Assembly: GCA_005223125.1 (NCBI GenBank)
Contig: NJBH01000002.1
Span: forward strand, 96,001 to 160,000
Direction: 5' to 3'
DNA: 64,000 nucleotides
Source of the DNA: Promethearchaeota archaeon Loki_b32
GTDB taxonomy: Archaea; Asgardarchaeota; Lokiarchaeia; Sigyniarchaeales; SOKP01
Shown: positions 31,911-43,033 of the stretch, one piece after another
Layout of the letters: each line of letters begins with the position of its first letter
Position numbering within the stretch: position 1 is the first letter of the stretch
The notes under the pieces: model-generated
Databases searched by the model: none
Told to the model about the DNA's origin: nothing
What the model saw: only the letters and a program-made list of their open reading frames with translations
Made by a program: the position numbers and the translations under genes

Positions 31911-34598
31911 TCAATAGAATTCTTGAACTTTGGACACATTATCAATTATATTTACTTCAAACAATGTATCGGCGATATCTTCTAATTCATTATGATGAGT
32001 AACGACAATTAACTGGGGAATTATATGACTTTCTTTCTTAAAATCTTTCATAGCCTCAACCAATTCTTTTCGCCTTTCTTTGTCTAAATGGGTTGTTGGC
32101 TCATCCATAATAACTGTGGATATTTGACTTGAAAGTAGCCTTGCAATCGCAAGTCGTAATATGATTGCTATAGCAACTTTTTCACCACCACTTACTGAAT
32201 TAATTGAAAGTTTGCCTGTACGCCCAATAATCGTAATATCAAGATCCTCATCAATAGAAATATCTGTAATATTGATATTAAAAGCATCTAAATATTCTTT
32301 TGCGAATTCAGTAATTTTGGGAGCAAATATTTTTCTTATTGCTTTTTGTAATCCGTCTTTAGAAAAGGCAGCTCTAATTTTTAATAAAAATTTGTTAAAA
32401 TTTCGAATTTTGTCAAATTCTTTTAATTTTTCCTTAAATTCTTGAATATTTTGCTCCTTTTCTTTTAATTGAGTTTCTTGGTTTTTTATTTGTTTAATAA
32501 GTAATTTCTTATTACTCTTTTTTGTATTTACGCTATCTTTAATTTCATTATATTCATTCATAGCATTCTCATAGTCTTCTTTCGTATATACTAATTCTTT
32601 TATCTTTTCATTAGTATCTTTTAAATTTTTCTTTAAAATTTCTAATTCTTTATTATTTTTATCCAAATCTTGTTTATATTCTTCTAACTTTTCACTTTTG
32701 ACTATATACCCATCACATTTTTCTTTTATATTTCTAAGATGTTTTAATTCTTTTTCGGGGTCTTTTGGTTTTTCTTTAAAATTCTTAAGAACTGACGTAA
32801 TCGAAGATTCTATTTTATTTAAATCTGATTGTAAAATTTGAAGATGATTTTTTATTTCATTTACATCTCGCTTTTCACTTTTTAAAGCTTCTGCTGCTGC
32901 TTTATATAAAATGAATTTTTTCTTTATTAATTTCATTTGCTTTTTATTATCTTCAACAATTTTTTCCAATTCGGATTTTTCTGATAATTTAATTTGTTCT
33001 TGTTTTACCTTTTCTTCCAAACCACTTATTTTTGACTGTAGATTATTAAGTTTTTTCTCAAGTTCATGATAGCGGTCCAGGTCTAATTTTTTAATTTCTT
33101 CAAGTCTATTCGTTAACTTGGACTCCTCCTCATCTAGTCTTTGTTTTTGTTTGTCATTTTTTTTTAATTGTTCTTTTTTATTGGCACTTTCTTCACTAAA
33201 ATTATTAATTACCTTATTCCGATGATCTTCGGTTAAATCACTTGAACAGACTGGACATTTTGTACTCTCTCCGAGGATCTTTAAATATTCATCAATTTCT
33301 TCAATCCTTCCTTTCATCTTACCTGAAAGATCTATTAAATTTCTAACCTTATTGTTGATATCGTTAACATTTTTTTCTAATTTTTGGATTAATTTCTGTT
33401 TCTCGGAGATATCTACTTTTGGTAAGTATTTTAGAGTATTTTTTTCGATCTTAATTATTTCTTCTTGAAATTCCTTAATATTTTCGTTATAGTTCTTTAT
33501 ATCTGCATTGAATTTTGCTACTTGAATTTCAATTTCATTATATATCTTTAACTCTTTTTGTTCTTCTTCGACTTTCTTTTCAGTTTCTTGGTATTGTATA
33601 TAGAATTCCTTATTTGCCTCTTTTTTATCATGCCATCCCTCTACTCTATCGAGATCATTAGTATTAGTCTTTATATCATTCTCTTTATTTTTTTTTTTAT
33701 TTAATAAATCAATATAGCTCTCATAATGCTCAATATTTTTTATCTGTGGTCGAAGTTTTTTTGCTTCTTCTTTAGCACTTCTGGCTTCATCCACTTGTTT
33801 TGCTAACTTTTCGACCATTTTATTTACCGAAGAGATTTTTTCATTAAGTTCTGTCTGTTCATTGGTCATCTTTTCATTGTCTTCACGCTTTGTTTCCCAT
33901 AACTCTTTTTTCTTTAAGGCTTTTTTTAACGATTCTTCTTCTATTTTTATTTCCTCATCAATCTTTGAGACATTATCTTTGAGTTCTTTAATGCTTAACT
34001 CCAACTTGTCTTTAGCTTCTTGATGATCTTCTAATTTAGCCTGAATTACATCATAATCTTTTAATTTATCTTCAAAGGCATCTATAACAGCTTTCATATT
34101 ATCATAAGCTTTTTTCAACTTATCTATTTCTAATAATTTGGCCATCACTTCTTTTCGTTCTGCAGGTCTTCCATCAATTAAATTCGTAATTTCTCCCTGC
34201 CTAATAAAAATTGAATTGATAATCGCATCTTTATCCATTCCTAAAATTTTAGCAATTTCTTCACTTACCCCAGTCTGTTTTGTTGCTTTTGAGATACCAT
34301 TTTCTCTAATTACTGCATAAGGTCCGCTGTCTGTTTCTCTTCTTCTGACTACTTCATAATCATTTCCATTATGCTCAAAAATTAATTTTACTTCTGCATT
34401 ATTAGTACCTTTTCTGATAAGATCATCAATATTATCCCCTCTAACGTGTTCGCCACAAATTGAATAATAAATCCCATCGATAATTGAGGATTTCCCGGAA
34501 CCATTTTCTCCTCGAAAGACCGAAACCCCTCTTGGAAAATCAAATTTAGTATCTTTATGAGAAATAAAATTCTTTAATTCAATTCTTTTCAATATCAT
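31911..34598 (-). CDS. rad50: Rad50/SbcC ATPase
   Basis: GENGSGKS, IRQGEI, zinc hook CPVC, VSGGE, MDEPT, VVTH. Confidence 0.93.
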   Translation of the reverse strand: MILKRIELKNFISHKDTKFDFPRGVSVFRGENGSGKSSIIDGIYYSICGEHVRGDNIDDLIRKGTNNAEVKLIFEHNGNDYEVVRRRETDSGPYAVIRENGISKATKQTGVSEEIAKILGMDKDAIINSIFIRQGEITNLIDGRPAERKEVMAKLLEIDKLKKAYDNMKAVIDAFEDKLKDYDVIQAKLEDHQEAKDKLELSIKELKDNVSKIDEEIKIEEESLKKALKKKELWETKREDNEKMTNEQTELNEKISSVNKMVEKLAKQVDEARSAKEEAKKLRPQIKNIEHYESYIDLLNKKKNKENDIKTNTNDLDRVEGWHDKKEANKEFYIQYQETEKKVEEEQKELKIYNEIEIQVAKFNADIKNYNENIKEFQEEIIKIEKNTLKYLPKVDISEKQKLIQKLEKNVNDINNKVRNLIDLSGKMKGRIEEIDEYLKILGESTKCPVCSSDLTEDHRNKVINNFSEESANKKEQLKKNDKQKQRLDEEESKLTNRLEEIKKLDLDRYHELEKKLNNLQSKISGLEEKVKQEQIKLSEKSELEKIVEDNKKQMKLIKKKFILYKAAAEALKSEKRDVNEIKNHLQILQSDLNKIESSITSVLKNFKEKPKDPEKELKHLRNIKEKCDGYIVKSEKLEEYKQDLDKNNKELEILKKNLKDTNEKIKELVYTKEDYENAMNEYNEIKDSVNTKKSNKKLLIKQIKNQETQLKEKEQNIQEFKEKLKEFDKIRNFNKFLLKIRAAFSKDGLQKAIRKIFAPKITEFAKEYLDAFNINITDISIDEDLDITIIGRTGKLSINSVSGGEKVAIAIILRLAIARLLSSQISTVIMDEPTTHLDKERRKELVEAMKDFKKESHIIPQLIVVTHHNELEDIADTLFEVNIIDNVSKVQEFY

Positions 34599-35700
34599 CT
34601 TCGATAAATTCCTCCTTAAAATATTTATTCGCTAAATTTATAGCTGAATCTTTATTTCCATTCGAAAGATCATCATAAAGACCTTTTGCAAATTGTCCCA
34701 TATTTTCATTCTCAAAATGCTCCACAAAAATTGCTTGAAGATCATAGTTATCTTTTGAAATTTTAATCTCTTTTGACTTTTTTTCACTAAACCTTATTTT
34801 ATGATATATGACTTTATCCTTCAATAATTTCTCAACGTTCTGCTGAATAAGTGCTCTATCTAAATCCTTTCCGTATATTTTAAGATTAACTACTGGTTTA
34901 TTTTCTTTTTCCAGATATTTTGGCAGGTCATTGACCTCTGATGCTTCTAATTCAAGTCTTAATTGTGGTCGGATATCTAATGGTATGAATTCATATTCAA
35001 TATTCCCATCTTCAATATCTACTATATAAAAACCTTTCCCTTTCTTCTGCCAAGTTGTAACCTCATCTTGCTTTTTAATCTCTGTTGCCCCGCTATATAC
35101 TAAGTAGCCCTCTCCGAATTTTAAGACATTAGTTGCATGAATATGTCCTAATGCATAATAACTTGCTTTTTTTGGTAAATCATCTAAAGTTAATTGATAT
35201 ACTCCCTTAAAAGGTAAATATTTTTTAATTGCTTGGTGAAGAATTAAGACAGAATTTTTAGAATTTTCGGCTATCTTATCAAATTTTTTCAATTCTTTCT
35301 TTAAATGCTCTTTATTCATAGTCCTTAGATTTGATATTCCTGCAAATAGTACATCCTTAATTTTTATTGATTCTAAAGTAAAGCTTTTCCCTAGTATCTG
35401 AATGTTAAATAATTCATGTGGTATTTTAGCTTTTCTTTTAGGTATATCATGTTCTCCTAAGACAGTCAAAAACTTAATTTTACCATTTAATTTATCTATC
35501 CCTTCTTTAAAACTGAGAAGTGCTTTTATAGGAGGATGATAATTATCAAATAGATCACCCGCATGAATTATAACATCCACTCGTTCTTCTAAGCATTTAT
35601 CTATAACTTGATGAAATGCATCATAAAAATCCTGTTCTCGTATATCCAGATTATATTGCTTATATCCTAAGTGGGTGTCTGATACGTGAGCTATTCTCAT
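34579..35700 (-). CDS. mre11: Mre11/SbcD nuclease
   Basis: SDTHLG, AGDLFD, LGEHD, LHQ, ALGHIH phosphoesterase motifs. Confidence 0.93.
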   Translation of the reverse strand: MRIAHVSDTHLGYKQYNLDIREQDFYDAFHQVIDKCLEERVDVIIHAGDLFDNYHPPIKALLSFKEGIDKLNGKIKFLTVLGEHDIPKRKAKIPHELFNIQILGKSFTLESIKIKDVLFAGISNLRTMNKEHLKKELKKFDKIAENSKNSVLILHQAIKKYLPFKGVYQLTLDDLPKKASYYALGHIHATNVLKFGEGYLVYSGATEIKKQDEVTTWQKKGKGFYIVDIEDGNIEYEFIPLDIRPQLRLELEASEVNDLPKYLEKENKPVVNLKIYGKDLDRALIQQNVEKLLKDKVIYHKIRFSEKKSKEIKISKDNYDLQAIFVEHFENENMGQFAKGLYDDLSNGNKDSAINLANKYFKEEFIEDDIEKN

Positions 35701-35706
35701 ACTTTT

Positions 35707-37353
35707 TCACTCCAGCATACCTCTTGTATCTTCTAAATCTTGTCGTAGATCTTCTTCTCTTCGCTGTTCTTCATTATCAACATATTCACGGGCTTCGTTT
35801 AACATACCTAATAGATCTAAATCTGCTCCCCCTTCTTGAGTATTTCGTCTTCTTACTTTAACCATAACGGGGGCTCTTGTCAAATTACCAACAACTACAG
35901 CTTCTCCAATGTTTAATCCCGGTAAATCACTTAACAGATCTTCACTTAATTTTTCAGAACTTCTCTTAATTGCGGTTTGATCTTCTGCATTGGTTATTTT
36001 TAAAATCATTTGGCTATTGCATTGACTTAATGCATCCTGGTCCACTTTATAAGGTCTCTGAGTTATTAATGCCTGAAAGACTCCAAATTTCCTACCCTCA
36101 GCTGCAATTTCTTTTACTATATCTATTGAATATCCACCGCCTCTTCTCCCAGGTTTATTAGGTAAAAAACGATGAGCTTCTTCAATAAATACAAAGACGG
36201 GAAAATGATATTCATCACTTCTTCTTTGATCATATATTTCATTAAGTATTCGTGAAGCTATATAGTCTGCTACATAATCTGGGATTCCAGATAAATCAAT
36301 TACAGAAACATGCTTTGGACGTATAATATCACAGACAGGGGTTGTTGTATCGGCAAAAATTTGTAATCTGTGCATTCTTCTTACATATCTCAATGCATTG
36401 CGGGAATCATTTGTATCTGCATTAGTTAATTCATTAATTAGATCATCTAAATTATAACCCGTAGCAGAATCTAGATTCGCTAAAGCACTTTCTATTGCTG
36501 TTCTAATTCGAGTAAATCTTTCAGGAATACCACAGATATTAAATATTTCAAATGCATCTAAATCAGCAAAACGAATTGAATATTGTTCGATTTCCCTTCC
36601 AACATCAGCATCAGTATATATTCCTGTACTATTAGGTGTCTGAAATACTCCCATTCGATTAATTGTTTCAATTTCATCTTGCCTTCCTTCGTCATTTTGT
36701 TCGCCTTCTTCTAAATTTTCTTCACTTTCTTCTTCTAATTGATTTCCCAATAATACATAATCCGCATGCGGATCAATGATAACAATTGTAGCTCCTTTTT
36801 TGTATAATTCTTCAACAAGAACTCCTCCCAAGTAACTTTTTCCACCTCCAGTCTGAGCCAATATTGAGATATGTCTTTGAAAACCTTTTATAGATATATA
36901 AACAGGTACATCTGAACGTGTAATTAAATGTCCAATATATAATCCTTCTTCTTCGGGATATGAATAAAATTCAGCTAAAAGGTCATTTGAAGCTAAATAA
37001 ACAGGATTACCCGGTTTTATTGCCCTTCTTGGCTGAAAGATATTTCCATTATGTAAATATCCTAGAACTCGTGCTTTAGCAAAGCATCGAGCATCAGCTA
37101 ATCCCGCACTTATAATTTTTTCAGCATCTTCCATTTTCAGATCGGCGACAAGTGCACGAGAATCCGCAAATACTTCAAATATTTGAGCAATAATACTTAC
37201 GTCAGTTTCTCGCATTATTCCTGCAATATTTATTAGTTCTTTCGAATGTATAGCGACATATTCTAATCTATTAATATCTTTATTAGTCGAAAAATAAAAT
37301 TCGGAAGTATTAACTTCTCCAACTATTATTCCTATTTTAGGGATACCTGACAC
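35707..37353 (-). CDS. herA: HerA bipolar DNA helicase/translocase
   Basis: N-terminal HAS barrel, Walker A AQTGGGKS, IIDPHADY, IEEAHRF, EGRKFG, TQRP. Confidence 0.92.
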   Translation of the reverse strand: MSGIPKIGIIVGEVNTSEFYFSTNKDINRLEYVAIHSKELINIAGIMRETDVSIIAQIFEVFADSRALVADLKMEDAEKIISAGLADARCFAKARVLGYLHNGNIFQPRRAIKPGNPVYLASNDLLAEFYSYPEEEGLYIGHLITRSDVPVYISIKGFQRHISILAQTGGGKSYLGGVLVEELYKKGATIVIIDPHADYVLLGNQLEEESEENLEEGEQNDEGRQDEIETINRMGVFQTPNSTGIYTDADVGREIEQYSIRFADLDAFEIFNICGIPERFTRIRTAIESALANLDSATGYNLDDLINELTNADTNDSRNALRYVRRMHRLQIFADTTTPVCDIIRPKHVSVIDLSGIPDYVADYIASRILNEIYDQRRSDEYHFPVFVFIEEAHRFLPNKPGRRGGGYSIDIVKEIAAEGRKFGVFQALITQRPYKVDQDALSQCNSQMILKITNAEDQTAIKRSSEKLSEDLLSDLPGLNIGEAVVVGNLTRAPVMVKVRRRNTQEGGADLDLLGMLNEAREYVDNEEQRREEDLRQDLEDTRGMLE

Positions 37354-38599
37354 GTCTATAACCTCTTGGTGTTGCTTTTTTTCCTATAATTTCTTCAAAT
37401 TTTTTTAAATATAATTCTTTAAAATCTACTCGTGATAATTTTACTTCATTATCCACGGCTGTAAGCCATATATTATAATTTTCCAACCCGCAATATCCCG
37501 CTGAAATTAATTTTAATACTTCATTTAAATCAATGTCTATCAATTTTGGCCATCCAATATCTAATAGTCTTTTATTAATACCAAAATACCATGCAGGTAT
37601 ATCTATTCGCATTGGAGTATCAATTCGAGTTGGTAAAATATGAAATGATATGATTGCTGGAAAGTCCAGCATCTCAAAAATAATTTTTTGAGCGTGCTTA
37701 ATAAAATCTGGATCTTCAGATAACGTTGGGAAATTAGATTCAATAAATTGTCTAAAATTTGTTCTTATTAATTTTTCCGCTCGTCGCCATCTGGTGCTAG
37801 CACCTAATAATAATGGTTTAGTATATCCAGAATCCTTTGCGTTACTAAGAATTAATAAAGAATCGGGTTTCCTTGCGATTAATTCTTCGGTCAACAAGAT
37901 AATATCTTTATCTCTTATTGATTTTGCTAATTTGAATGCATTTTTTGGTCTATCCAACGCTTCTGAAAGAAGTCTTTTTCTCAATTTTTTATCTGAAATT
38001 TTCTCTTTTAAGATCTCCTTTATTAAGAATTCTCTATAAAAAGAGGTTCTACTCTCTTTACTAATCCCTATAAGTAAAATTCCCTTTTCTTTACATAATT
38101 TTAATAATTTTAAATAAATTTCAAAATAATCTAGGATAAATCCCTTATTATTTTCCAGTTTAAGTTCCAATGGTAAGTGAACCATTCTACCATAAAGAGA
38201 ACCATCAATTAATAATATACCTTCAAATTGTTTTTCAATAGCTTGAATTCCTGCTAAATGTTCCGTCCATTCCATTACTCTTCCAATAAAAGTTGATTGA
38301 GTCATAATATTAGAGAAGTCAAAATCCGTAAAAATGGTTCTATACTTATTTTTCTTACCTAATGCTAAAGCACGACAGACAAAAAAGAAGCCTCCATTTG
38401 ATGTTGGACATCTCCCTCGACTACTATCTATTGCTATGACATCTTGTTCAGGGATACAGGAGTCTAATTGATAATTTATCCAATGAGCTTTAAATTTATT
38501 TTCATAAAATTTATTAATTTTTTTGTCCTCAAAATTTTCTAAAATCCTCTTAGATTTAGTATTTAAATCTACGATGAATTCTGTTAGAAATTCTGGCAT
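37337..38599 (-). CDS. nurA: NurA 5'-3' nuclease
   Basis: IAIDSS, LLIDGSL, GISKES, YNIWLTAVDNEVKL; overlaps herA by 17 bp. Confidence 0.88.
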   Translation of the reverse strand: MPEFLTEFIVDLNTKSKRILENFEDKKINKFYENKFKAHWINYQLDSCIPEQDVIAIDSSRGRCPTSNGGFFFVCRALALGKKNKYRTIFTDFDFSNIMTQSTFIGRVMEWTEHLAGIQAIEKQFEGILLIDGSLYGRMVHLPLELKLENNKGFILDYFEIYLKLLKLCKEKGILLIGISKESRTSFYREFLIKEILKEKISDKKLRKRLLSEALDRPKNAFKLAKSIRDKDIILLTEELIARKPDSLLILSNAKDSGYTKPLLLGASTRWRRAEKLIRTNFRQFIESNFPTLSEDPDFIKHAQKIIFEMLDFPAIISFHILPTRIDTPMRIDIPAWYFGINKRLLDIGWPKLIDIDLNEVLKLISAGYCGLENYNIWLTAVDNEVKLSRVDFKELYLKKFEEIIGKKATPRGYRRVRYP

Positions 38600-38791: not shown

Positions 38792-40270
38792 TTACATATA
38801 ATTGCTATATGCTGTAGGAGGTGTAATATCTCTACCTTTCAATTCTCCCATTATTTTTCCTACTTTTTTTGATACTGAGAGTGTAACGGGCATTCTTTTA
38901 CAAAAATCTGTGCTATTCCAGTCTAATTTTGTTAAATTGATTATATCTCTTGCTAATATTTCAGTATCACTATCACTTTTTTCTACAATTACTTCAATAG
39001 GTTTTGGTATCATACTACCTGGATATGTATCAAGACAAGGAATGTAACCAGTTGTATAAAGATTAAAGACTTTTTTATTATTGGAATTTCTTTCAAATAC
39101 AGAACCACGAGCTATAGGATAATCTGTTGAGGTAATTGCATTAAAATGACAATATTCTTTAATATGAATAAAATCTTGGATTTCAATATTTTTTGTTGAT
39201 TTTAAAAATCCTTCATTTTCTTCCTCAGTATATTCCGATTTTTTATGTACAACAATTCTATTAGGCTTACTATTATGGTGTTGTCTTTTATATAAGTTAA
39301 TAGCTTGGGACAAAATATCTTTTGCTTGTTCTTCTGTAAGATTGGTTCTTCTAATATCTTCTTCATGTTCAACTTTTAATTCTAAACCTCTAGCCACTTG
39401 AGAGTCACCAGTCCTCATATAGACCTGAGCTATAGCAGCTTTAATAACTACACTATCTCTTTTATTAATATCATAGTAAAATGAAATTCCAACATGAACA
39501 GTTTCAGGATTTAAATCAGCTAATTTCCAGGGAATACCTGAAAATTTATAATATTGGGCAACAACATAGTTCCAAGCAATTGAAGCAGGATCTTCCAAAT
39601 TCCCTCCTTTGAATTCCAATGTTTGAGGAAGCATTAATTGTGTTCGCAAATTCAACTCATATCCTAGAACTTTTATATAATTATGGAAATCATAAAATAT
39701 TGGACGTTCACTTTGATCCATTGAAGCTATTCTCTGTAAATCTCGAAAATTCCGATCGCTTAGTCGGATTTTCTTATCTTTTGTAAATGGATCTGAACAA
39801 GCTTCTAGAATTTTTTTAGGAATAGTAATAATAATAACAGGTCTTGGAAGATTTTGCCCACTCAAATCTTTCAGAATCTGCTTTATATGTTCTGAAAATT
39901 CAACAATTCTTTCATTTCGGTTAGCAATATTAAGAATTTTTTCAATATTTTGTGAAGAAATTTCTTGACAATAATTATCATCTTTCTCCATATAAAATCC
40001 TAACGGACCATCTTGATATAATCCTGGAAAATCAAGATTTCTTATATTTGAATTAGGATATGTCACACCTTCTATTGAATATTGTAATAAAGAAAGAAAA
40101 TCAATTGCCGCATTAATTGATTTTTTCGATCCAATTATTCCTATAGGAATTCTTAAATTATTATGTTCCAATCCATTTGGTTTATAATTTAATAATCCTA
40201 CTCTTGGATCAGCACATGTAGTTTTATCTCTGAAAATTAAATCCGGTTCTGGCACTAAAAACGATCTCAT
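38792..40270 (-). CDS. ago: Short prokaryotic Argonaute (MID-PIWI, catalytically inactive)
   Basis: EPDLIF..DPRVGL start; MID DFHNYIK...TQL...AWN..VAQYYK.SGIPW; PIWI VGISF, VVHKKS, LTKLDWN, PVTL; ends YSNYM; DEDX tetrad absent. Confidence 0.93.
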   Translation of the reverse strand: MRSFLVPEPDLIFRDKTTCADPRVGLLNYKPNGLEHNNLRIPIGIIGSKKSINAAIDFLSLLQYSIEGVTYPNSNIRNLDFPGLYQDGPLGFYMEKDDNYCQEISSQNIEKILNIANRNERIVEFSEHIKQILKDLSGQNLPRPVIIITIPKKILEACSDPFTKDKKIRLSDRNFRDLQRIASMDQSERPIFYDFHNYIKVLGYELNLRTQLMLPQTLEFKGGNLEDPASIAWNYVVAQYYKFSGIPWKLADLNPETVHVGISFYYDINKRDSVVIKAAIAQVYMRTGDSQVARGLELKVEHEEDIRRTNLTEEQAKDILSQAINLYKRQHHNSKPNRIVVHKKSEYTEEENEGFLKSTKNIEIQDFIHIKEYCHFNAITSTDYPIARGSVFERNSNNKKVFNLYTTGYIPCLDTYPGSMIPKPIEVIVEKSDSDTEILARDIINLTKLDWNSTDFCKRMPVTLSVSKKVGKIMGELKGRDITPPTAYSNYM

Positions 40271-40285
40271 TTTTTATCTCCTCTT

Positions 40286-41707
40286 TTAATTAAAAAATTT
40301 ATCTATTCTTGTATCATTAACTCCGATTGTTTTAGAGCTCCAATTGACTGTATGCTCCATCAAGGGCTTTATTATAAATTCATTAAACCAGGGATCTTTA
40401 TCTCGGCTAAAATAATCACTAGTTAAGAAATCGCTCCAAAATTCTAACCTAAGTCTCCAACTTGGATTTCTATTCCATTTTGGATTCAAATACTTTTTAT
40501 GTAGATTACTTGAATGGTCTCCTGTTATCGTATTTACACCATTTCTAGTAAAAATAAATCTAGGCCAAATAAATAAACCCATTTTACCATCATATTCATC
40601 TAATCGAATGAAAACAGATTTATGCTCAACATAATACAGTGTTCCATCTGGGCTATAAATTGGTTTAGTTACTGTTTTAATTTTTCTATTGGGTAGATTA
40701 ATTTTAATTGGTTCTACACTGCCCTTTGGTTTATCATCAATAGGTTCGTCATAAGCAAAGAAAAAATCACTCTCCCATCTTCTTAAACCTTTACACCACA
40801 AATATCTTCGTAATGATGTATAAAGTAATTCCCTTTTCCTCTGAATATCAAGCCTATCTGTATCATGGTCATATACTGGTCCTGAAATATGGGGTCTAAG
40901 AACATTCAGATTCTTCTCAAATGACCTTACAACTGGTTCAGGTGCTTCAAATCGTGGAACAACAAATTCAGGTAACCTTTGCTTTTCTTCAGATCTAACT
41001 CTGTCAATTATAGTCTTTTTAAGTTTGAATTTGGATTTAACTTGCCAAAATTTTTGCGGATATTGTAATTCCATAAAATTTAATATAAGATTGTCCTTTT
41101 CTCTCGTTGGATCTCTTCGATTCTTAATTTCTCTTAACAATCTTTTATGCTGTGAATTTAGATTTTTTCTAAAAATATCTTCTCTATCTCTTACTCGTTC
41201 GACTAAACCAAGTAGGGAACAAACCTTTACATCAGTATTTCTAAAAAACTCTAAAATTTCTGATTCATTAGCGGAATTTAACTTTTCTACTTTTTTCTCA
41301 TCAAAATTTAATCCTTCCTTATTATTAAACCAATTTAAAATTTCTTCCTTTTCTGCTTCCCTTGTTAATACTTTTTTAGTCTGATTTTTTTTATTAAATT
41401 TATTCGCAAAAATTACAAATCTAAATCTTCTTTCAGGTCTTAAAATTAACCAATAATAGAAATAGTCAAATATTTCGTGTCTAAGATTTTCAGATTTAGC
41501 AAAAATCGAGACTTGAGTATTTTTAGCTTCTATCCATAAATTTTCTTTCTTATTATCCATGATAATATCAGATAAAGTCCCCTCATTTAAGGAATTCTTA
41601 GTTAAATGATAACCTTGAGTTTGATAATACCTTATAATGTATTTTTTATATAATTCTGAATTATAATTACGAGCTTCTCTCTCTGATTCAAAATCTTCCC
41701 ATGACAT
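40286..41707 (-). CDS. PD-(D/E)XK nuclease-APAZ partner of the short pAgo (SPARDA-like)
   Basis: N-terminal LSDIIM...WIEAKN; C-terminal APAZ-like VEHKSV...IWPRFIFTRNG...RNPSWRLRLEFWSDFL; 15 bp upstream of ago. Confidence 0.8.
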   Translation of the reverse strand: MSWEDFESEREARNYNSELYKKYIIRYYQTQGYHLTKNSLNEGTLSDIIMDNKKENLWIEAKNTQVSIFAKSENLRHEIFDYFYYWLILRPERRFRFVIFANKFNKKNQTKKVLTREAEKEEILNWFNNKEGLNFDEKKVEKLNSANESEILEFFRNTDVKVCSLLGLVERVRDREDIFRKNLNSQHKRLLREIKNRRDPTREKDNLILNFMELQYPQKFWQVKSKFKLKKTIIDRVRSEEKQRLPEFVVPRFEAPEPVVRSFEKNLNVLRPHISGPVYDHDTDRLDIQRKRELLYTSLRRYLWCKGLRRWESDFFFAYDEPIDDKPKGSVEPIKINLPNRKIKTVTKPIYSPDGTLYYVEHKSVFIRLDEYDGKMGLFIWPRFIFTRNGVNTITGDHSSNLHKKYLNPKWNRNPSWRLRLEFWSDFLTSDYFSRDKDPWFNEFIIKPLMEHTVNWSSKTIGVNDTRIDKFFN

Positions 41708-41905
41708 TGTATCTTATTTTTTCATTTTTTTATAAGAATAAATTATACTTCCTTATGTTACTTATGTTGTATATTATATATATAAACTTTATGTCAAATA
41801 TATTATTATAAAAAATTACTAATCTTTGAAAAACTAAATCTTTAAATCTTAGTTTATCGAATTATTATAATGTAGATAATGTTGCTAATTTATTAATAAG
41901 TTAAT

Positions 41906-43033
41906 ATGCCTGAAAAAAATTCGAATTTTCCAAAGATTAGAAATTTAGTTTTGGATGCTGTAAAGGAAGGTATTAATGAGAAAAAGATTTTTTATGATAT
42001 TTCTCCTAATTGGCATCAATATTTTCATTATGAAAGTAATCCTTTAGACTCATTTACTCCACATGAACCTTTTGAAGACCATCTAAATGAATTATTTGTT
42101 AATAGAGAAGCGGAAATTCATTTAATTTCAAATTATTTTGGAAGTATAAAAACTATTCCATATAACATGCATATCGCAATAATAGGTTCTAAAGGAATAG
42201 GTAAGCATACGACCCTAAAAATAATATGTAAAATCATTCAAGAATCGTTTCCAGAAATATCTTTTGAATATTATAACTTAAAAACAGGTAAAGATTTTAA
42301 AAATAATTCAGATTTAGAAGATTTTGAGTTAAATAATTTAGATAAACAAGAGCTAGATATTCGCCTCATCTCTTGTTCTGGTAAAAATAAGTGGTTGGTT
42401 TTAAAGAGAATTAATAACTATAAGAAGAAAAGTAAAATTTTTTTCACTATCTGGCATACTAGGGATTTTCCTATGAATGAAGGTTTAAAAATAAACAAAA
42501 TCATTTATTTTCGAAATTACAATAAAGAAGTTGTTACTAAAATTTTCGAGCGTAGAATTAAAAAGTTCCTAAATGAGAAAAAAGGAAATAAAAGTTACAT
42601 TAATAGTCTTTACAAGAATCTTCTTCCTTCTATTATCAGTGCATTTCAAGGTAATTTAAAACTTAGTTTTCATTTCTTTAAACAAATTCATCAATTAGCA
42701 AAAATGCAGAATTTAGATGAAATTCCACAATCCTTAATAGAGGAGTTAATGAATAATTATCTATTAATAAAAAGCCAAAAGATTACAAATAAAGAAAAAG
42801 AGATAATTAATTATCTTTTAAATGCTCAAAATGTTAAATTCATCACTACCAGCGATTTAAGAGATGATCTTCAATTTGATCGAACAGTAGCATGGAGATA
42901 CTTAGAGAATTTAACTAAAAAAAACATATTAACACGAGTAAAATACGGAAATCCCTCAAGATATAAAATCAATGACATTTTTCTGAGTTTTTATGAAGAT
43001 GAATTAAAAAATAGAATAATATTTAAAGAATGA
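41906..43033 (+). CDS. P-loop ATPase-like + C-terminal HTH protein (Orc1/Cdc6-like architecture)
   Basis: FVNREAEI, GSKGIGKH, FQGNLK; HTH TTSDLRDDLQFDRTVAWRYLENL. Confidence 0.7.
   Translation: MPEKNSNFPKIRNLVLDAVKEGINEKKIFYDISPNWHQYFHYESNPLDSFTPHEPFEDHLNELFVNREAEIHLISNYFGSIKTIPYNMHIAIIGSKGIGKHTTLKIICKIIQESFPEISFEYYNLKTGKDFKNNSDLEDFELNNLDKQELDIRLISCSGKNKWLVLKRINNYKKKSKIFFTIWHTRDFPMNEGLKINKIIYFRNYNKEVVTKIFERRIKKFLNEKKGNKSYINSLYKNLLPSIISAFQGNLKLSFHFFKQIHQLAKMQNLDEIPQSLIEELMNNYLLIKSQKITNKEKEIINYLLNAQNVKFITTSDLRDDLQFDRTVAWRYLENLTKKNILTRVKYGNPSRYKINDIFLSFYEDELKNRIIFKE

Follow-up and report, generated by a model that had tools for sequence, protein, structure and literature searches.

Organization of the gene pair

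We analyzed 64,000 nucleotides of the genome of Promethearchaeota archaeon Loki_b32 (GenBank assembly GCA_005223125.1, contig NJBH01000002.1, positions 96,001 to 160,000; this whole stretch is called the window below). In the window, two neighboring genes encode a short prokaryotic Argonaute (pAgo), here called P0001, and a partner protein with a nuclease half and an APAZ half, here called P0002. Both open reading frames (ORFs) are co-oriented on the minus strand and possess no internal stop codons, and the partner gene lies upstream of the Ago gene (Table 1). The initial annotation of this DNA, which was made from the letters of the sequence, had placed the pair at 38792-41707, with a 492-aa Ago and its partner upstream, and had described it as a SPARDA-like short-pAgo system in an Asgard-like archaeon. 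The spacer between the two genes is 15 nt long (AAAGAGGAGATAAAAA preceding the ATG of the Ago gene), and the GAGGAG sequence that had been noticed between the genes was found in it. Close homologues are labeled Promethearchaeota, Lokiarchaeota, Thorarchaeota, Heimdallarchaeota and Helarchaeota, in agreement with an Asgard host at the level of the phylum; these names are no guide to the class of the organism.

Table 1 Features of the gene pair and its surroundings in the window
Feature	Position	Strand	Basis
PD-(D/E)xK nuclease-APAZ effector gene (P0002), 473 aa	40286..41707	-	ORF reading
Predicted nuclease domain, P0002 residues 1-200	41108..41707	-	AlphaFold2 model, Foldseek, VIA-align
Predicted catalytic motif D47...E60-x-K62	41522..41569	-	conservation in 51 homologues
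APAZ region, P0002 residues ~201-473, including C-terminal tail	40289..41107	-	family profile and Foldseek
C-terminal tail NDTRIDKFFN, low model confidence (pLDDT)	40289..40318	-	AlphaFold2 model, family tail comparison
GAGGAG, ribosome-binding-like site, 7 nt 5' of Ago ATG	40278..40283	-	direct reading
Short pAgo gene (P0001), MID-PIWI only, 492 aa	38792..40270	-	ORF reading
MID 5'-end binding pocket H196, K200, Q211 (HK type; FHNYIK)	39638..39685	-	54-sequence alignment
GISF (residues 261-264), first PIWI catalytic Asp replaced by Ser263	39479..39490	-	alignment including SPARDA Ago (GIGF)
HKKS (residues 342-345), PIWI catalytic Asp position occupied by Lys343	39236..39247	-	54-sequence alignment
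Complete nurA-herA-mre11-rad50 operon	31911..38599	-	starts 192 bp downstream of Ago
198-bp AT-rich intergenic region, common to the divergent gene at 41906	41708..41905	.	sequence reading
Divergent two-gene unit, 375 aa and 266 aa	41906..43847	+	

P0001 is a short Argonaute with a conserved guide pocket

Among the PADLOC models, pAgo_I matched P0001 with an E-value of 1.6e-115 over residues 3-492 (model positions 3-455 of 455), and the pAgo_II (Class II) models reached only ~2e-3. The Pfam Piwi model scored 28.8 bits, with a cut-off of 28.9. P0001 aligns end to end with short pAgo chains of ~470-507 aa and has no N or PAZ domain, so that it is a MID-PIWI-only Ago as had been read from the sequence. 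When the PDB was searched with P0001, all 10 of the 10 matches were short pAgos: the SPARDA Agos 9qbp_B (1.1e-45), 9qbl_B and 9jsb_A and the SPARHA Ago 9om4_B (1.9e-44) were the best, the SPARTA Agos ranked next (1e-40 to 1e-35), and the last was 8in8_C (2.5e-20). The search tool gives no system name for 8in8_C, which we take to be from a SIR2-type short-pAgo system. The idea that P0001 is a truncated long-B pAgo (AfAgo-like) was rejected because no long pAgo was found among the PDB matches at E <=0.01 and because the partner consists of a nuclease and an APAZ region. A Pfam Piwi search of the whole assembly (4.13 Mb, 95.5% complete) detected no second Argonaute besides P0001.

In an alignment of 54 short pAgos, K200 and Q211 of the MID pocket are invariant (54/54). 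Position 196 is H in 42 sequences and R in 10, and the R group includes the Agos of the DREN and SMEK systems; that is, P0001 has an HK-type pocket, and the DREN/SMEK Agos have an RK-type one. P0001 also retains the C-terminal Y-M. In contrast, the columns in which catalytic Asp residues would be expected in the PIWI domain contain S in 44/54 and K in 49/54 sequences, and D in none (0/54). The alignment with the SPARDA Ago shows the same pattern of loss of the catalytic residues. Because the pocket is conserved and the catalytic Asp columns are without Asp, P0001 is predicted to be a guide-binding, cleavage-dead MID-PIWI protein. Thus, both the HK-type pocket and the dead PIWI domain of the initial annotation are borne out by the alignment.

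The C-terminal half of P0002 corresponds to APAZ

P0002 matched the PADLOC models Aga_REase_Archaea (6.6e-25) and Aga_REase-PNTD1-PNTD2 (2.4e-8). No Pfam family was found in P0002 or in 50 homologues, and no NCBIfam family in P0002. A HMMER scan of 1.8 billion cluster representatives yielded 123 clusters related to P0002, mostly of ~470 aa. The PDB search with P0002 as a single sequence was empty, and APAZ surfaced only when a profile of the family was used. With this profile, the SPARHA HNH-APAZ chain 9om4_A (1.3e-22) and the SPARDA DREN-APAZ chains 9jsb_D (2.1e-19) and 9qbp_A (5.4e-19) were matched at profile positions ~201-431, and the overall range for the SPARHA and SPARDA APAZ chains was 1e-22 to 1e-17. 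We also modeled P0002 with AlphaFold2 (AF2); the predicted local distance difference test score (pLDDT) of the model was 87.6. The top Foldseek matches of this model were APAZ chains of SPARDA, SPARHA and SPARTA (E 1e-13 to 1e-9), with root-mean-square deviations of 3.4-4.2 Å across ~275 columns. Sequence profile and fold comparison therefore agree, and the C-terminal half of P0002 is a true APAZ, as had been proposed for the partner.

The N-terminal half of P0002 has a predicted PD-(D/E)xK nuclease fold

Residues 1-200 of P0002 were modeled alone with AF2 (pLDDT 87.6; predicted template modeling score 0.79). The modeled domain has an alpha-beta-beta-beta-alpha-beta core (H9-29, E34-38, E48-51, E56-66, H74-88 and E96-104), which is followed by a helical bundle. 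D47 is located at strand 2, E60 and K62 are on strand 3, and E11 and E18 sit on the first helix. Across an alignment of 51 family members, neither D47 nor K62 varies, and at least 90% of the sequences keep each of E60, E11 and E18. The D...EAK motif, which had been described as intact-looking, is therefore conserved across the family, and the E...D...ExK pattern is the signature of PD-(D/E)xK nucleases. Comparison of the model with solved structures pointed in the same direction. The Foldseek search that had been suggested for the N-terminal part retrieved PD-(D/E)xK nuclease folds: LmuA of the Lamassu system was the best match (1.8e-4, probability 1.0), and the HerA-associated nuclease assembly 9c1m and Cap4 came next. 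In VIA-align, the Z scores were 8.8 for Avs3, 8.1 for AF1548, 7.8 for Cap4, 7.7 for NucS and 7.5 for FokI, and restriction-endonuclease-fold enzymes accounted for all of the top 16 matches of the exhaustive search and for nearly all of its matches at Z >=5. The Cap4 (CBASS), LmuA and Avs3 nucleases, which are of the DUF4297 type, are the best structural matches to residues 1-183. They align over 140-158 residues including the helical part (Avs3 and two Cap4 entries 152-158, LmuA 140) with Z of 7.1-8.8, a range that is possibly generic, at 8-15% identity and with no Pfam or NCBIfam sequence match.

DREN (DUF4365) and SMEK were considered as identities of this domain and were rejected. For DREN, there was no Pfam hit in P0002 or the 50 homologues. 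When the family was compared by hhalign with bacterial SMEK-APAZ and DUF4365-APAZ proteins, the APAZ half alone was aligned (DUF4365-APAZ columns 209-459), and DREN-APAZ chains were absent from the fold matches of the N-domain model in both Foldseek and VIA-align. The domain is not HNH either. Taken from sequence and model together, the nuclease of P0002 is best assigned to the archaeal "REase" family, with a Cap4/LmuA/Mrr-like fold.

P0001 belongs to an archaea-dominated clade of short Argonautes

We constructed a tree of 54 Agos with IQ-TREE (LG+C20+F+G4, quick search, midpoint root). The TIR-associated Agos formed a separate clade on a long branch (Shimodaira-Hasegawa-like approximate likelihood ratio test, SH-aLRT, 100), and the bacterial DREN and SMEK Agos formed one clade (SH-aLRT 98). 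P0001 was placed beside the DREN/SMEK clade, in a 40-row clade of archaeal and metagenomic sequences (SH-aLRT 98). This clade includes haloarchaeal REase Agos, an Asgard HNH-associated Ago and sequences from Methanofastidiosia, ANME-1 and Bathyarchaeota. Within it, P0001 is nested in a 17-row subclade of its nearest relatives (SH-aLRT 100), all named members of which are Asgard. Thus, the phylogenetic placement that had been suggested as a check grouped P0001 with DREN-, SMEK- and HNH-associated Agos, in a tree without long-B or S1 rows. These results support the view that P0001 belongs to the true short pAgos, in an archaea-dominated clade apart from the TIR systems.

The gene pair is an Asgard member of a catalogued archaeal family

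When plasmids were searched by tblastn, the nearest Agos from cultured organisms (28-36% identity to P0001) were encoded on haloarchaeal plasmids of Halomarina, Halorubrum, Natrinema and Haloarcula marismortui (pNG600). At the Halomarina and H. marismortui loci, a "hypothetical protein" of 462-474 aa overlaps the start of the Ago gene. The P0002 family profile aligned with these two partners by hhalign over 408-428 columns and both domains (2.2e-43 and 1.2e-36, respectively), and the H. marismortui partner matched the PADLOC model PDLC02417 "Aga_REase_Archaea" over the entire model (3.4e-171). In contrast, the match of P0002 to PDLC02417 is mainly in the nuclease half. The pairs of H. marismortui ATCC 43049 (pNG600) and Halomarina sp. 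BCD28 (plasmid) have the same gene order, sizes (Ago ~472 aa) and partner architecture as the window pair, and their Agos are in the same archaeal clade as P0001; however, the partner identity to the window protein is only 18-21%. From these comparisons, we assign the window pair to an archaeal family already catalogued in PADLOC, as an Asgard member. In Halorubrum lacusprofundi, the short pAgo on pHLAC01 (95898-97322; L026) has no ORF of at least 150 aa in the ~1.9 kb upstream. Next to this pAgo is a site-specific integrase, and the pAgo is followed by genes for a DUF499 protein and a DNA methyltransferase. The partner of this pAgo may have been lost, or there may be an annotation gap.

The initial annotation had set the pair against the premise that short pAgos are described mainly from bacteria and that the Asgard Argonautes discussed for eukaryogenesis are of long types. 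As a case for novelty, this premise was overstated, given the haloarchaeal plasmid pairs and the PADLOC model. The combination of a nuclease-APAZ protein and a short pAgo dates to Makarova et al. 2009 (PMC2743648), and short pAgos were reported in archaea as well as bacteria by Ryazansky et al. 2018 (PMC6299218). Two surveys from 2024 also include short Asgard Agos or short archaeal ones: Bastiaanssen et al. 2024 (PMC11217426) sorted 138 Asgard Argonautes, including short ones, into 15 clades, and Leão et al. 2024 (PMC11291487) recovered both short and long archaeal Argonautes. Neither APAZ nor S2B is mentioned in the supplements of PMC11217426. Our literature search for haloarchaeal pAgo and APAZ turned up only work on active long pAgos.

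The short systems studied so far (SPARTA, SPARSA, SPARDA and SPARHA) come from bacteria, and in the SiAgo system of Sulfolobus the partners are different ones. To our knowledge, no archaeal nuclease-APAZ short-pAgo system has been characterized. The relatives of eukaryotic Argonautes in Asgard archaea are of the long type, and P0001 is part of a typical, horizontally mobile defense module; therefore, the bearing of P0001 on eukaryogenesis is only indirect.

The two genes are strictly linked and occur in unrelated gene contexts

Among 400 genomes of the phylum of the window, 22 were positive for APAZ (6 of the 90 genomes of high quality; 16 of 85 genera). Only 2 of the 53 other genomes of the same genus were positive, and the distribution is therefore patchy. 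At all 23 places in the 22 genomes, a short Ago is directly downstream of the APAZ gene.

In the window, the pair is followed on the same strand by a complete nurA-herA-mre11-rad50 operon, which begins 192 bp downstream of the Ago gene. This proximity would fit one larger system, in which the pair is coupled to NurA-HerA-Mre11-Rad50 end resection for generation of guides or for processing of cut DNA. However, synteny speaks against such a coupling. Pairs with 82-85% identity are present in three genomes. One of these (L039) has 9.9 kb of sequence on the downstream side of the Ago gene, and no resection gene was found there; in the remaining two, the sequence on this side is limited to 2.6 kb and <1 kb. 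Two pairs that are more distantly related have tRNA-synthetase, ScpB and PFL genes as neighbors. Thus, the operon is not a conserved neighbor of the pair. Moreover, the APAZ protein was the only specific associate of short pAgos in the analysis of Koopal et al. 2022 (PMC9097488). We consider coupling to the resection operon highly improbable. Because the pair occurs in unrelated gene contexts, it is regarded as a self-contained, mobile two-gene unit, in agreement with PMC9097488.

Proposed function of the gene pair

We propose that the window pair is a self-contained S2B-type short-pAgo defense module, which acts as an RNA-guided, DNA-triggered nuclease in abortive defense; we assign this reading a probability of about 0.75. 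The proposal starts from the gene pair itself, the identities and folds of its domains, the conserved active site, the dead PIWI domain, the strict linkage and the phylogenetic position. For the heterodimer, the type of guide and target, activation by assembly, collateral cleavage and the abortive outcome, we reasoned by analogy with SPARDA, SPARHA and SPARTA, the mechanisms of which have been described (bioRxiv 10.1101/2023.06.08.544223, 10.1101/2025.04.08.647717). In the proposed mechanism, P0001 and P0002 would form a heterodimer in which APAZ stands in for the missing N-terminal lobe of the Ago. The MID pocket (H196/K200/Q211, with the C-terminal Y-M) would hold a small guide by its 5' phosphate; this guide would most likely be RNA drawn from abundant transcripts. 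Pairing of this guide with complementary single-stranded DNA of an invader may then expel the C-terminal tail of APAZ from the nucleic-acid groove. Target binding would drive oligomerization, by which the N-terminal PD-(D/E)xK domains (D47/E60/K62) would unite into an active non-specific DNase. The expected outcome would be degradation of DNA, loss of the plasmid or virus, and cell death or dormancy.

The closest characterized system is SPARDA (Novosphingopyxis, Xanthobacter and Enhydrobacter). It has the closest solved Ago (1e-45), its APAZ matches at ~1e-19 in sequence and 1e-13 in Foldseek, and it shares with the window pair a dead PIWI domain and a PD-(D/E)xK effector N-terminal to APAZ. 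The logic of tail autoinhibition and an assembly-driven DNase is probably common to both, as judged by analogy. However, the SPARDA nuclease is DREN (DUF4365), whereas that of P0002 is not, and the SPARDA Ago is in the bacterial clade, whereas P0001 is in the archaeal clade. Of the earlier label "SPARDA-like", the architecture of a short pAgo with a nuclease-APAZ partner stands, and the nuclease domain does not (Pfam, hhalign). Lacking the DREN domain, the pair is not a SPARDA system, although its logic is SPARDA-like. Of the APAZ chains matched, that of SPARHA from Acidithiobacillus caldus (HNH-APAZ) is the closest in sequence (1.3e-22), and the SPARHA Ago was matched at 1.9e-44; the SPARHA effector is an HNH nuclease, in contrast to the PD-(D/E)xK nuclease of P0002. 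SPARTA (TIR-APAZ) and SPARSA (SIR2-APAZ) have the same architecture of short pAgo plus APAZ, but their effectors are NADases, whereas that of P0002 is a nuclease. In Cap4, LmuA and Avs3, the nuclease is coupled to a SAVED, SMC-like or STAND sensor, whereas the nuclease of P0002 is coupled to APAZ-Ago.

Several points weigh against the proposed function. The N-domain matched solved folds only moderately well (Z 7-9, 8-15% identity), and Z <8 can be generic. Since no sequence relation of the nuclease domain to DREN, SMEK or HNH was detected, its substrate, its use of metal ions and the geometry of its assembly could be different from those of the characterized effectors. The Ago tree, a midpoint-rooted quick search, is without S1 (SIR2) and long-B references. 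Finally, our literature search found no experimental work on the archaeal REase-APAZ effector family.

The difference in nuclease family also raises the possibility of a targeted nuclease, that is, a PD-(D/E)xK domain that cuts only guide-bound DNA or a specific structure, so that the invader is cleared and the host is spared. The effector of P0002 is of another nuclease family than DREN, and several of its fold neighbors, among them NucS/EndoMS, FokI, Hjc and BspD6I, are specific enzymes. However, the best fold neighbors, Cap4, LmuA and Avs3, are non-specific defense DNases that are switched on by oligomerization, and no DNA-recognition domain besides the nuclease and APAZ is visible in the P0002 models. 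Furthermore, all characterized short-pAgo systems use collateral or abortive effectors (PMC9097488; bioRxiv 10.1101/2023.06.08.544223, 10.1101/2025.04.08.647717). We therefore consider targeted cleavage very unlikely and prefer a collateral DNase.

REase-APAZ proteins are common in anaerobic archaea, Asgard archaea included, and on plasmids of haloarchaea. Biochemistry of this family would reveal if autoinhibition by the tail and activation by filament formation apply to a third nuclease type, and to archaea.

The C-terminal tail and a possible link to PCNA

The proposed mechanism gives a role to the C-terminal tail of P0002. In the family, 29 of 93 members have the motif Q-x-x-[LIMV]-x-x-[FYW] within their C-terminal 25 residues, as compared with 11 of 1639 internal windows (0.7%). 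The motif stands in an acidic C-terminus and resembles the PIP box (PCNA-interacting peptide); it fits the archaeal PIP consensus. The tail of the window protein has IDKFF without Gln. In SPARDA, the acidic C-terminal tail of APAZ plugs the nucleic-acid groove and has an autoinhibitory role, and the SPARTA tail is likewise autoinhibitory. By analogy, the tail of the P0002 family could be an autoinhibitory tail as in SPARDA and SPARTA, or it could be a PCNA-binding peptide. In the latter case, the same Ago-APAZ complex would be tethered to the replication clamp, and surveillance or cutting would be placed at replicating DNA, instead of or besides autoinhibition by the tail.

The end of the P0002 tail, I-D-K-F-F-N, and the enrichment of the motif in family tails are in line with a tether, and another Asgard short-Ago operon, that of HrAgo2, encodes PCNA (PMC11217426). 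However, the Gln of the motif is missing from P0002, and the motif is absent in both haloarchaeal tails examined. The tails of bacterial DREN-APAZ proteins have a similar acidic L-F-[DE]-[FY] element, yet bacteria are without PCNA. In addition, the role as an autoinhibitory plug is established for the SPARDA and SPARTA tails. Thus, the PCNA tether is unlikely, and we favor an autoinhibitory tail. A combined version, in which the effector is a Cap4/LmuA-type nuclease, a wiring so far undescribed for Argonautes, and a conserved Q-x-x-L-x-x-F tail docks the complex on PCNA, is quite unlikely as well. If it were true, a Cap4/LmuA-type effector with PCNA docking would mean that Argonaute surveillance is coupled to replicating DNA in the archaea most closely related to eukaryotes.

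Neighboring sequences and related loci

TATA-like runs are visible in the AT-rich intergenic region upstream of P0002, which is presumed to be a promoter. The two proteins of the divergent unit beyond it have no Pfam family. This unit recurs beside the pair in one close relative (G249, L040:5742-7680) with 81-87% identity and is absent beside the pair in the two other close relatives.

The partner types in the phylum include REase, HNH and effector-APAZ-Ago fusions. The HNH type is represented by one locus (L015) in a genome (G246) of the same family as the window genome, where an HNH-APAZ partner is upstream of a short pAgo as in SPARHA; the Pfam HNH match (3.5e-4) is just under the cut-off. 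Six genomes of family f31 (L016, L018-L022) have single ORFs of ~860 to >940 aa, truncated at contig ends, in which an effector region is joined to APAZ and MID-PIWI. The N-terminus of the one fusion scanned (L019) matches Pfam Schlafen/AlbA_2 (9.4e-07). These fusions appear to differ from the SLFN-GHKL "extra-long" pAgos, for which a single Heimdallarchaeota example is listed (bioRxiv 10.64898/2026.05.29.728809). In another genome (L013/L024, G056:C139), the REase-APAZ partner is split into ORFs of 227 aa and 161 aa upstream of an intact Ago, with two separate profile matches at positions 6-222 and 231-470. This is probably a frameshifted or decaying copy.

The Ago of one genome of the phylum (L006) is identical to an NCBI protein that is named "Promethearchaeota archaeon". 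The class-level NCBI labels of near-identical or close homologues (P0259, P0008/P0024) conflict, and are given as Thorarchaeota, Lokiarchaeota or Promethearchaeota.

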